Shown piece by piece: positions 16,785 to 24,275 of a stretch of 64,000 nucleotides of DNA. Every line of letters starts with the position of its first letter. The stretch's first letter is position 1. The DNA comes from Escherichia coli (GTDB lineage Bacteria; Pseudomonadota; Gammaproteobacteria; Enterobacterales; Enterobacteriaceae), in assembly GCF_009931435.1 (NCBI RefSeq), contig NZ_CP043414.1, one strand, 5' to 3'. The position numbers and the translations under genes are program-made. A model generated the notes under the pieces. That model was not told where the DNA came from. It did not search any database and saw only the letters and a list, made by a program, of their open reading frames with translations.

Positions 16785-17669
16785 TCAATCATGTATTTTT
16801 ACAGCAAGACAACCACGAACAAACTCAGGATTAAAATGTTTTACCGATTCCCCAACATAACCCAAATCAAGCGAACTAATTTGCGCCATTTCTTTCTCTG
16901 TCAGTGAGAAATCCCAGATAGCAAAATTTTCTTCGATACGCTGTTGATGTGTCGATTTCGGAATAACGACCACTCCCCGTTGAATATTCCAACGCAGAAT
17001 GACCTGAGAAATCGATTTTTGATGGGCATCTGCAATATTCTGAAGCAGACTATTTTCAAAGGTTTTATGTCTTCCACCGCCTAACGGAGCCCATGCTTCA
17101 GGCTGCACGTTATAATACTTCATGGTTGCCAGCGCCTCTGGTTGGGCAAAATAGGGATGCAACTCGACCTGGTTGACCATCGGTTTAACTCTTACCGTCT
17201 CACAAAAGTTCGCCAGAACATGAGGGTAGAAATTGGAAACCCCAATCGCTTTTAATTTTCCCTCTTCATAGGCATCTTCGAGTGCACGCCACGCACTAAA
17301 ATAATCGCGCATGGCCTGGTGTAATAAATAGAGATCGAAGTATTCCAGTCCCGATTTTTTTAATGATGCTTCAATACCTGCTGCTGCAATATCCTGATTC
17401 AACATATCCTGCACCCACAATTTAGACGTTATAAATAACTCTTCTCGGGTACATAAACCTTCAGATATGGCTTCACGAACGGCTTCACCGACGGCATCTT
17501 CATTACCGTATACCGCTGCAGTGTCGATGAGTCGATAACCCGTGCGGATAGCATTCAACACTGACTGTTTGCACACGTCTTTATCGGTAACCTGAAAAAC
17601 ACCAAATCCCATCATCGGCATTTTCAGATTGTTACTTAATACGGAAAATTCCACTGTCAGTCCCTCCAT
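16785..17669 (-). CDS. aldo-keto reductase (2,5-diketogluconate reductase-like)
   Basis: 294-aa ORF with AKR motifs (MPMMGFGVFQ, LIDTAAVYGNE, IGVSNF, IPKS); a GTG at 17654 with a GGAGGGA RBS may be the true start. Confidence 0.85.
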   Translation of the reverse strand: MEGLTVEFSVLSNNLKMPMMGFGVFQVTDKDVCKQSVLNAIRTGYRLIDTAAVYGNEDAVGEAVREAISEGLCTREELFITSKLWVQDMLNQDIAAAGIEASLKKSGLEYFDLYLLHQAMRDYFSAWRALEDAYEEGKLKAIGVSNFYPHVLANFCETVRVKPMVNQVELHPYFAQPEALATMKYYNVQPEAWAPLGGGRHKTFENSLLQNIADAHQKSISQVILRWNIQRGVVVIPKSTHQQRIEENFAIWDFSLTEKEMAQISSLDLGYVGESVKHFNPEFVRGCLAVKIHD

Positions 17670-17869
17670 TAGGTATGAACAATGAGTCTACGTTAAAACG
17701 TAACCTCAAATTAGTATGTGGATTTTGATATCACTTATGCAAAAAATTCATTAATAATGTAGGACTGAAACCTCTCTATTTTCGGGGACAACGAAGCAGA
17801 CGCTACCAGTGCTTTTGCCTTCGCCCTTGCTGTTTTTGATACACTTAGGGCCCAGGGCATAACGAAAAT

Positions 17870-18760
17870 GTGCGATATGACAAAGAATTAACGGAGAATG
17901 TGATGATCAGGCAGAAGATTCTACAGCAGCTCCTGGAGTGGATTGAGTGCAATCTTGAGCACCCTATTTCAATCGAAGATATCGCACAGAAATCTGGCTA
18001 CAGCAGACGCAACATCCAGCTTCTGTTCCGAAATTTCATGCATGTGCCTTTGGGAGAATACATTCGCAAACGAAGGCTTTGTCGCGCCGCCATTCTTGTC
18101 CGGCTCACCGCGAAATCTATGCTTGATATTGCACTCTCTTTGCATTTTGATTCACAGCAGTCATTCAGCCGCGAATTTAAAAAGTTATTCGGCTGCTCTC
18201 CCCGTGAATACCGCCACCGTGATTATTGGGATCTCGCAAATATCTTCCCTTCTTTTTTAATACGTCAACAGCAAAAGACGGAGTGTAGATTAGTCAACTT
18301 TCCTGAGACGCCTATTTTTGGCAATTCATTTAAATATGATATTGAAGTGTCGAATAAATCACCGGATGAAGAAGTCAAACTGCGACGTCATCATTTAGCC
18401 AGATGTATGAAGAATTTTAAGACGGATATCTATTTCGTCTCCACGTTCGAACCGTCAACAAAATCGGTCGATTTGCTCACAGTTGAAACTTTTGCCGGTA
18501 CGGTATGCAAACAAACCGATTCAGAGATGTCGAAAGAGTGGACAATTAACCGAGGACTGTATGCCTCTTTCCGCTATGAAGGTGAGTGGGAGCACTACCC
18601 TGAATGGGCGCGAAACCTCTATCTGATGGAATTACCTGCCAGGGGGTTAGCCAGAGTGAACGGCAGTGATATTGAGCGATTTTATTACAATGAAGATTTC
18701 GTAGAAAAGGATAGCAATGATGTTGTTTGCGAAATATTTATCCCTGTTCGTCCGGTTTAG
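17870..18760 (+). CDS. AraC-family regulator with GyrI-like effector domain (ykgA-like)
   Basis: 296-aa ORF with N-terminal AraC HTH (SIEDIAQKSGYSRRNIQLLF); probable start at ATG 17903 (MIRQKILQQLL) after a GGAGA RBS. Confidence 0.8.
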   Translation: MRYDKELTENVMIRQKILQQLLEWIECNLEHPISIEDIAQKSGYSRRNIQLLFRNFMHVPLGEYIRKRRLCRAAILVRLTAKSMLDIALSLHFDSQQSFSREFKKLFGCSPREYRHRDYWDLANIFPSFLIRQQQKTECRLVNFPETPIFGNSFKYDIEVSNKSPDEEVKLRRHHLARCMKNFKTDIYFVSTFEPSTKSVDLLTVETFAGTVCKQTDSEMSKEWTINRGLYASFRYEGEWEHYPEWARNLYLMELPARGLARVNGSDIERFYYNEDFVEKDSNDVVCEIFIPVRPV

Positions 18761-23134: not shown

Positions 23135-23699
23135 TGAGATAATTTCCTGATGAACGAATTAACGAACATAGGCAGACACAAATAATGGTGTCTGCTTGTC
23201 AGAAAAACCGGGGATTTCCCGGTTTCCTTTTCCGCAGAAAAGGAAATACCTTTATGTAAGAAAGTACACCGCCACCTAATATATCCAGTGCCTGTAGCCA
23301 CTCATCAGGTGGTTGGGCGCGGGATTATATTTTTATTTATGGGTGAGAATTTAGCTTTTTGTGCAAACCATTAAATAGATACCTAAGTTATATTTCTTAC
23401 TCTGCGGACAGTGAATAATTCATTATTCAGAGTGAATAATAATGACCTACCTTTAATTAGCAACTATCGGAAATACGTCGAAGTAGGTATATACGCCAGG
23501 ATAAACCGATATATTTTTTATGGATATTCATTTTCCTTCATCAGACTGTGAATTGCAGGGATATCGAACTTGCACGACTCATCGCAACACTCAAACAGAT
23601 TTATGAATTTCGTTCATAACCCCTGACAAATCCTGCCGTCTAATCGCGTGACTCCCTTTACGTTATGCTTCTCATGAACGATAACGAAAGGATAACACC

Positions 23700-24275
23700 A
23701 TGCAAAAAGTAAAACTGAACAACGGTATTGAAATGCCCCTGTTGGGCTTTGGTGTATTTCAGATGACCGATGCCGCCGAATGCGAAAGAGCGGTCATTGA
23801 CGCTATTAACAGCGGTTATCGACTGATTGACACCGCCGCCTCTTATCAAAATGAAATCCAGGTCGGGAACGCACTGAAACAAAGCGGTATCGCCCGTAAC
23901 GAACTCTTTGTCACCACGAAACTCTGGTTGCAGGATACCAGTTACGAAGGGGCCAAAGCCCAGTTCGAACGCTCTCTGAATCGACTGCAACTTGATTACG
24001 TTGACCTGTACTTGATTCACCAGCCATATGGCGATGTCCACGGAGCCTGGCGTGCCATGGAAGAGCTGCAACAGGCCGGTAAAATTCGCGCTATTGGCGT
24101 AAGTAACTTCCATCCTGACCGACTGGCTGACCTTATCGCCTTTAATAACGTCGTTCCGGCGGTAAACCAGGTTGAAGTTAACCCTTTCAATCAGCAGCTA
24201 CAGGCCGTTCCCTGGATGCAAAGTCGTGGCATTCAGCCAGAAGCCTGGGCACCGTTTGCGGTTACAGGGCGGTAA
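23700..24275 (+). pseudogene. truncated aldo-keto reductase paralog (C-terminal ~90 aa missing)
   Basis: 191-aa ORF clearly paralogous to the AKR at 16785..17669 (LIDTAA, TTKLW, IGVSNF) but ending at [11 protein letters not shown]; the 192 bp downstream cannot encode the missing C-terminus. Confidence 0.6.

Follow-up and report, generated by a model that had tools for sequence, protein, structure and literature searches.

The 64-kb stretch of Escherichia coli DNA analysed here (the window) carries two aldo-keto reductase (AKR) open reading frames (ORFs), which flank a ykgA-like regulator gene and the adhesin gene fdeC. The second of these, a 191-amino-acid ORF next to fdeC, contains a pseudogene, here called AKRb', that is the derived 5' remnant of a gene of 283 codons. 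The explanation that we favour, with a probability of about 0.93, is that AKRb' is what remains of a conserved cassette gene, AKRb, after 2,278 bp were replaced by 677 bp through illegitimate recombination in an E. coli ancestor. The pseudogene status is already known from public annotation; the content that was replaced and the genes that were lost with it are newly worked out here. A literature search on fdeC together with aldo-keto reductase or ykgA found nothing relevant. The features around the junctions are listed below, with gene names as in matching RefSeq records and family assignments from Pfam and NCBIfam profile searches.

23135..23699, no strand: fdeC-AKRb intergenic region, retained 5' of the remnant and collinear with intact-type genomes at 93-98% identity
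23700..24275, plus strand: short aldo-keto reductase ORF, 191 amino acids
23700..24261, plus strand: AKRb', 5' remnant, codons 1-187 of 283, pseudogene
24262..24938, no strand: foreign patch, 677 bp, whose first 14 nt are the VTGR-stop tail of the 191-amino-acid ORF
24468..24824, plus strand: gene for a secreted small beta-barrel protein of 118 amino acids, the patch cargo, with a signal peptide and two conserved cysteines (Cys29 and Cys115)
24855..24940, no strand: 86-bp non-coding stretch at the right end of the patch
24939..25112, no strand: ancestral intergenic DNA on the 3' side of the LysR2 gene, up to the end of the LysR2 stop codon at 25113

Comparison by BLAST with an intact-type genome shows that the window is collinear with it up to position 24261 and again from 24939, and that the 677 bp between (24262-24938) have taken the place of 2,278 bp present in the intact-type locus. 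The missing DNA comprises AKRb codons 188-283, a whole second reductase gene, a whole LysR-family gene (LysR1) and 48 bp upstream of LysR1. The left junction is exact to the base: the window reads ...GCACCGTTTGCGG followed by TTACAGGGCGGTAA, whereas the intact type reads ...GCACCGTTTGCGG followed by AAGGGAAAAATGG. Homology to the orthologs stops after ...EAWAPFA (codon 187 plus one base, at 24261), and the frame then runs through VTGR to a stop codon in unrelated DNA. The original prediction, made from the window alone, had placed a deletion or insertion breakpoint at about 24276, where a secreted-protein gene and a LysR module were said to begin. A breakpoint does lie near the end of the short ORF, at 24261/24262 and thus 14 nt 5' of the end of the stop codon, which is what position 24276 reflects; the event was deletion and insertion at once. 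The secreted-protein gene does belong to the breakpoint, lying within the patch, whereas the LysR module is ancestral and does not start there.

We compared window positions 23300-25100 with 5,426 complete E. coli genomes and found three sharply distinct states of the locus:

State A, intact (Ecol_732, ST131, CFT073, UTI89, CE10; 1,888 genomes): AKRb of 283 amino acids, second reductase of 329 amino acids, convergent LysR1, LysR2, hydrolase, flavin oxidoreductase
State B, patched (this window, O157:H7; 314-315 genomes): AKRb' remnant, 677-bp patch, LysR2, hydrolase, flavin oxidoreductase
State C, AKRb lost (K-12; about 2,800 genomes that match the upstream region without AKRb): in K-12, clean deletion of window positions 23686-28339

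The 1,888 genomes of state A, each with a 283-amino-acid AKRb, supply the comparison with genomes intact at the second site that had been proposed as a check on the truncation. The patch is present in 315 of the 5,426 genomes, always in a single copy, at this locus only and with at least 99% identity. About 307 of the patched genomes are of the O157:H7 type, and about seven others have a left flank like that of the window (2020CK-00188, R32_14_1F, XJ34, XJ6-3, 2013C-4282, WL297 and 2017-02-2CC). In one of these, XJ34 (NZ_CP098231.1), an IS1 element is inserted inside the copy of the 677-bp patch. RefSeq annotation, made by the Prokaryotic Genome Annotation Pipeline (PGAP), labels the remnant in O157:H7 and in 2020CK-00188, the nearest relative of the window, 'incomplete; missing C-terminus', and the O157:H7 entry RB262_RS21990 (NZ_CP133126.1) reads 'aldo/keto reductase; incomplete; partial in the middle of a contig; missing C-terminus'. 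This O157:H7 pseudogene corresponds to the remnant in the window, junction included; PGAP is silent on the replacing DNA and on the other losses.

The deletion in K-12 spans 4,654 bp; it begins 14 nt 5' of the AKRb start and reaches almost as far as the 3' end of the flavin oxidoreductase gene. AKRb is absent from about 2,800 of 5,049 matching genomes; those sampled share the left end at 23685, and the mapped junction is that of a single K-12 strain. Like the patch, the K-12-type deletion removes AKRb at a sharp junction, with microhomology of at most 3 nt in K-12. It differs in being a pure deletion without foreign DNA that also takes LysR2, the hydrolase and most of the flavin oxidoreductase. 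The replacement in the window is best regarded as an ordinary event in a locus that is structurally variable across E. coli, and the three states of the fdeC-ykgR interval (intact, patched and deleted) could serve as lineage markers.

The gene order of state A (ykgA, fdeC, AKRb, second reductase, LysR1) is also found in two outgroups, Escherichia whittamii and Escherichia sp. E1V33; in both, homology to the window is interrupted at 24261 and at 24937-24941. A scan of one genome per species gave 80 Enterobacterales loci, in genera that include Citrobacter, Buttiauxella, Erwinia, Pantoea, Serratia, Yersinia (Y. pestis), Morganella and Proteus. AKRb is matched over residues 1-283 in 79 of the 80 loci and over residues 1-282 in the remaining one; the second reductase is also present at 61, and the whole trio at 45, mostly with the same spacing. 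The intact order in the outgroups, together with full-length AKRb throughout, indicates that state A is ancestral and AKRb' derived. Because a full-length ortholog occupies the same site in E. coli and in the outgroups and the 3' part is absent from the window, AKRb' is a truncation pseudogene. A reductase-reductase-LysR cassette that is conserved elsewhere in the Enterobacterales is thus missing from the O157:H7 lineage and from that of the window. The LysR2, hydrolase and flavin oxidoreductase genes to the right of the patch also occur in genomes with an intact AKRb, so this module belongs to the ancestral locus and lies outside the insertion:

25113..26132, minus strand: LysR2 regulator, ancestral and retained; the RefSeq coding sequence of 927 nt lies inside this ORF
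26196..27116, plus strand: alpha/beta hydrolase, ancestral and retained, divergent from LysR2
27289..28431, plus strand: old-yellow-enzyme-type NADH flavin oxidoreductase, ancestral and retained

The patch is foreign accessory DNA. Its best DNA matches (74-79% identity) cover window positions 24284-24836, and homologs of its 118-amino-acid gene, 55-83% identical, lie in a variety of settings, often close to mobile elements: beside a P4-like primase and an Ogr/Delta element in Siccibacter, about 1.3 kb from the tRNA gene thrW in Klebsiella, next to genes for a recombinase and tail fibres in a record from Enterobacter asburiae, and also beside IS1, beside a phage-type integrase and 3' of an unrelated LysR gene. 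The 86-bp stretch at 24855-24940 reappears in two places (locus L010, 2565-2646; locus L004, 6001-6084): in Klebsiella, where it lies in an accessory region 94 bp from tRNA-Thr (thrW) and 1.1 kb farther on than in the patch, and in E. coli PCN061, where IS3 and remnants of an island adjoin it.

These associations with integrase, primase, IS1, IS3 and thrW are what might be expected if the patch were a complete small mobile element, inserted by its own transposition machinery or by tRNA-targeting site-specific machinery. This is the alternative that survives best, and we nevertheless consider it improbable. The only ORF in the 677 bp is that for the 118-amino-acid protein, with neither a transposase nor an integrase, and no terminal inverted repeats, target-site duplication or flanking direct repeats were detected at 24262 or 24938. 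There is no tRNA gene in 23000-26000 and no Rfam match at the junctions. The patch accordingly does not fit an insertion sequence or transposon, having no transposase, terminal repeats or target duplication, nor a tRNA island or prophage, having no integrase, adjacent tRNA, att repeats or phage homolog. The unit occurs at no second site in the genomes searched, and 2.3 kb of host DNA was lost, unlike in a simple insertion. Moreover, the similarity of donor-like sequences extends beyond the window's right junction, which makes that junction an arbitrary breakpoint rather than the end of an element. The right junction shares about 2 nt (GG), and such short microhomology, in combination with the lack of insertion-sequence ends, target duplication and tRNA, points to illegitimate recombination.

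On the favoured explanation, the ancestral cassette would have consisted of AKRb (283 codons) in first place, followed by the 329-amino-acid second reductase and a convergent LysR gene. Illegitimate recombination in an E. coli ancestor would then have swapped 2,278 bp of it for the 677 bp of foreign accessory DNA. This could have happened in a single step, or a larger element could first have inserted and then been cut down by a deletion that extended into host DNA. The remnant would have kept its upstream intergenic region (in which any AKRb promoter or ribosome-binding site would fall), its start codon and its Asp-Tyr-Lys-His motifs, and would now read through four foreign codons to a stop. 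Both this mechanism and a single origin of the patched state are inferred.

The two reductase copies in the window are paralogs, as originally predicted, and their ORF coordinates were given correctly: BLASTP aligns AKRa (16785..17669) and AKRb' with 91 of 187 residues identical (49%, E 1e-61), and both match the aldo-keto reductase family PF00248, AKRa with 146.9 bits and AKRb' with 134.9 bits against a cut-off of 24. AKRa and a full-length AKRb ortholog share 125 of 282 residues (44%, E 5e-85). At 44-49% identity the sequences are old paralogs rather than products of a recent duplication. The best NCBIfam model for both is DkgA (NF008598), at 235.4 bits for AKRa and 188.4 bits for AKRb'; both scores are far under the curated 425-bit cut-off, so the proteins are DkgA-like and neither is DkgA itself. 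They share superfamily, size class and Asp-Tyr-Lys-His motifs with DkgA (PDB 1MZR and 1A80) and with Bacillus reductases of the YvgN/YtbE type (E 1e-61 to 1e-76 for PDB matches to these structures).

16785..17669, minus strand: AKRa, intact DkgA-like aldo-keto reductase, ORF of 294 amino acids; PF00248, annotated as an intact aldo/keto reductase in relatives

Full-length aldo-keto reductases have about 275-330 amino acids and fold into an (alpha/beta)8 barrel. AKRa, with 294 amino acids from the first ATG (289 in its RefSeq relatives, which start five codons in), covers positions 10-289 of the 291 in the PF00248 model, as expected for a near-complete domain and a complete barrel. AKRb' covers only positions 3-193, with 187 native residues against 283 in its orthologs, so that the prediction of one intact and one C-terminally truncated copy stands. 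The catalytic tetrad of the superfamily, Asp-Tyr-Lys-His, has established residue roles, and its motifs are all present in AKRb', as LIDTA (D44), ASYQ (Y49), TTKLW (K74) and LIHQP (H107); the AKRa equivalents are D49, Y54, K83 and H117. Near the C terminus of the superfamily, KS-x-R-xx-R ... EEN forms the motif that binds the 2'-phosphate of NADPH. AKRa retains it as IPKSTHQQRIEEN, and intact AKRb has LAKSVRKER..EEN at residues 226-238; these residues lie past the truncation at 187, and the motif thus has no counterpart in AKRb'. With this cofactor motif and the last third of the triose-phosphate isomerase (TIM) barrel gone, the product of the remnant would be expected to be inactive. An antisense ORF of 151 amino acids (23658-24113, minus strand) lies almost entirely within the AKRb' coding sequence, and we judge it to be a shadow ORF rather than a gene.

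In SCPM-O-B-8794 (locus L018, 4887-6562), a species-representative genome that bears the label E. coli but is only about 88% identical to the window, AKRa and AKRb are directly adjacent and divergent (compare window 16791-17757 and 23596-24261). This locus lacks the ykgA-like regulator and fdeC (window 17758-23595), as well as rclRABC. The arrangement would reflect either an insertion of ykgA and fdeC between the paralogs in other lineages or their deletion from the SCPM-O-B-8794 lineage.

The 191-amino-acid ORF has its own start and stop codons, a retained upstream intergenic region and all four tetrad motifs, and might on these grounds be taken for a naturally short, complete aldo-keto reductase. 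We give this possibility hardly any credence. Residues 1-187 have the same amino acids as the intact protein WP_001174452.1 (283 amino acids), which is encoded at the same site 3' of fdeC; the window copy lacks residues 188-283 and has four codons from unrelated DNA at its end. The 80 outgroup loci, the 1,888 E. coli genomes and the structure of a full-length close relative of AKRb, PDB 4MHB ('putative aldo/keto reductase', E 1.6e-175 over residues 1-283), all give a length of about 283 amino acids, and full-length orthologs occupy the same chromosomal site. Every ortholog found has 283 amino acids, and a naturally short family member, which the original prediction had named as the finding that would overturn it, was not borne out. 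It would be wrong to list the 191-amino-acid ORF among functional reductases, and the relevance of this is mainly to careful annotation.

Truncation by a point nonsense mutation or frameshift is the commonest route to bacterial pseudogenes and would leave the rest of the gene downstream. A tblastn search with residues 188-283 (96 residues) against every frame of the 64-kb window gave as its sole match the paralog AKRa, at 16866-17075, and no orthologs of the second reductase or of LysR1 were found elsewhere in the window. With these residues missing downstream in any frame, and with DNA homology stopping abruptly at 24261, a point mutation is scarcely conceivable as the cause. Finally, the protein conservation of the trio across distant genera (87-95%) suggests horizontal movement and could be taken to mean that the patched arrangement came first and was repaired by later insertion of the reductase-LysR segment, a sequence of events to which we attach negligible weight, as an insertion that rebuilds a perfect 283-codon frame is implausible, the two outgroup Escherichia are intact at the same locus 3' of fdeC, and the gene for the 118-amino-acid protein is found at none of the 80 outgroup loci.

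Several observations weigh against a single illegitimate replacement that left a non-functional remnant. No contiguous donor of the 677 bp was found. AKRb' shows no decay, its amino acids matching those of the intact protein, and loss of function, deduced from known AKR structure, is only probable. Divergence between the window and O157:H7, which have identical junctions, also changes abruptly where remnant and patch meet: it is 3.2% in the remnant, but 0.4% in the patch and 0.75% in LysR2. Given this step, a single origin requires a later recombination end-point at or beside the junction, and the pattern of differences implies that homologous recombination ended somewhere in 24231-24398. The low divergence of the patch next to that of the adjacent remnant would also fit its spread by recombination, and the patch may have moved between lineages in this way.

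The remnants themselves differ in their distance from the intact gene. That of the window shows three differences from the intact B2-type gene, all synonymous, whereas that of O157:H7 differs from the intact protein's gene in 19 codons, 16 synonymous and 3 non-synonymous. We considered decay of the O157:H7 remnant and rejected it, on the grounds that 16 of the 19 codons are synonymous and that the checked sites in the last ~110 bp match the outgroup states; the latter indicates a different old allele rather than decay.

To the right of the patch, the diverged segment 24939-25110 had first suggested that the patch and LysR2 were imported together from a divergent donor by homology-facilitated illegitimate recombination. 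We reject this. The segment is closer to Escherichia sp. E1V33 (82%) than to ST131-type E. coli (62%), and the ST131-type sequence has deletions of 7 bp and 18 bp in 24939-25112. Since 24939-25110 is nearer to the outgroup, it is the ST131 type that carries derived deletions, and the window keeps the older form. LysR2 itself is about 2% diverged from the ST131-type comparison strain.

The patch cargo is an uncharacterized orphan protein that may deserve a study of its own. Only 17 clusters of homologs were found among about 5.8 billion proteins; the 11 of these used for alignment are 53-83% identical to the window protein, and the homologs with a source name come from Siccibacter, Enterobacter, Klebsiella and Cronobacter. 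The protein has no Pfam or NCBIfam match, and its best PHROG match is at E 0.017. A phage origin of the gene was considered and rejected, there being no phage record among the homologs and no convincing PHROG match. An AlphaFold2 model (mean predicted local distance difference test score, pLDDT, 87; predicted template modelling score, pTM, 0.77) is an all-beta small barrel. A Foldseek search of the PDB gave no match below E 0.001; the best hits resemble LolA, with template modelling (TM) scores below 0.45, and the fold is weakly similar to that of small barrels from the periplasm, among them the Brucella lysozyme inhibitor PhiA. One could speculate that the protein has been selected as an accessory factor, such as an inhibitor or binding protein of the periplasm, gained at the cost of a widely conserved reductase-reductase-LysR detoxification cassette and lineage-defining in O157:H7 and a few animal-associated E. 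coli; we regard this as doubtful.

The wider region of the window is the E. coli rclRABC / fdeC / ykgR neighbourhood, and its remaining features are:

13270..14124, minus strand: rclR
14323..15675, plus strand: rclA
15739..16625, plus strand: rclB and rclC
17870..18760, plus strand: ykgA-like AraC-family regulator with a GyrI-like ligand domain (HTH_18, HTH_AraC and GyrI-like matches)
18881..23134, minus strand: fdeC, inverse-autotransporter adhesin of 1417 amino acids, annotated as fdeC in matching records

A tRNA-Thr (CGT) gene, thrW, lies at 51025-51100 (minus strand) and adjoins ORFs 51215..52468 and 52479..53669, which are at the sites expected for proA and proB and which we take, from position and strand only, to be these genes. 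In the gap between the hydrolase and flavin oxidoreductase genes (27117-27288), the window matches the ST131 type, but an indel of about 60-70 bp separates it from O157:H7 and 2020CK-00188. The most diverged gene nearby is fdeC (18881-23134), which differs by 5.7% from O157:H7 and by 2.6% from the nearest genome; the differences occur in patches, suggesting that fdeC is a mosaic, recombining adhesin gene.

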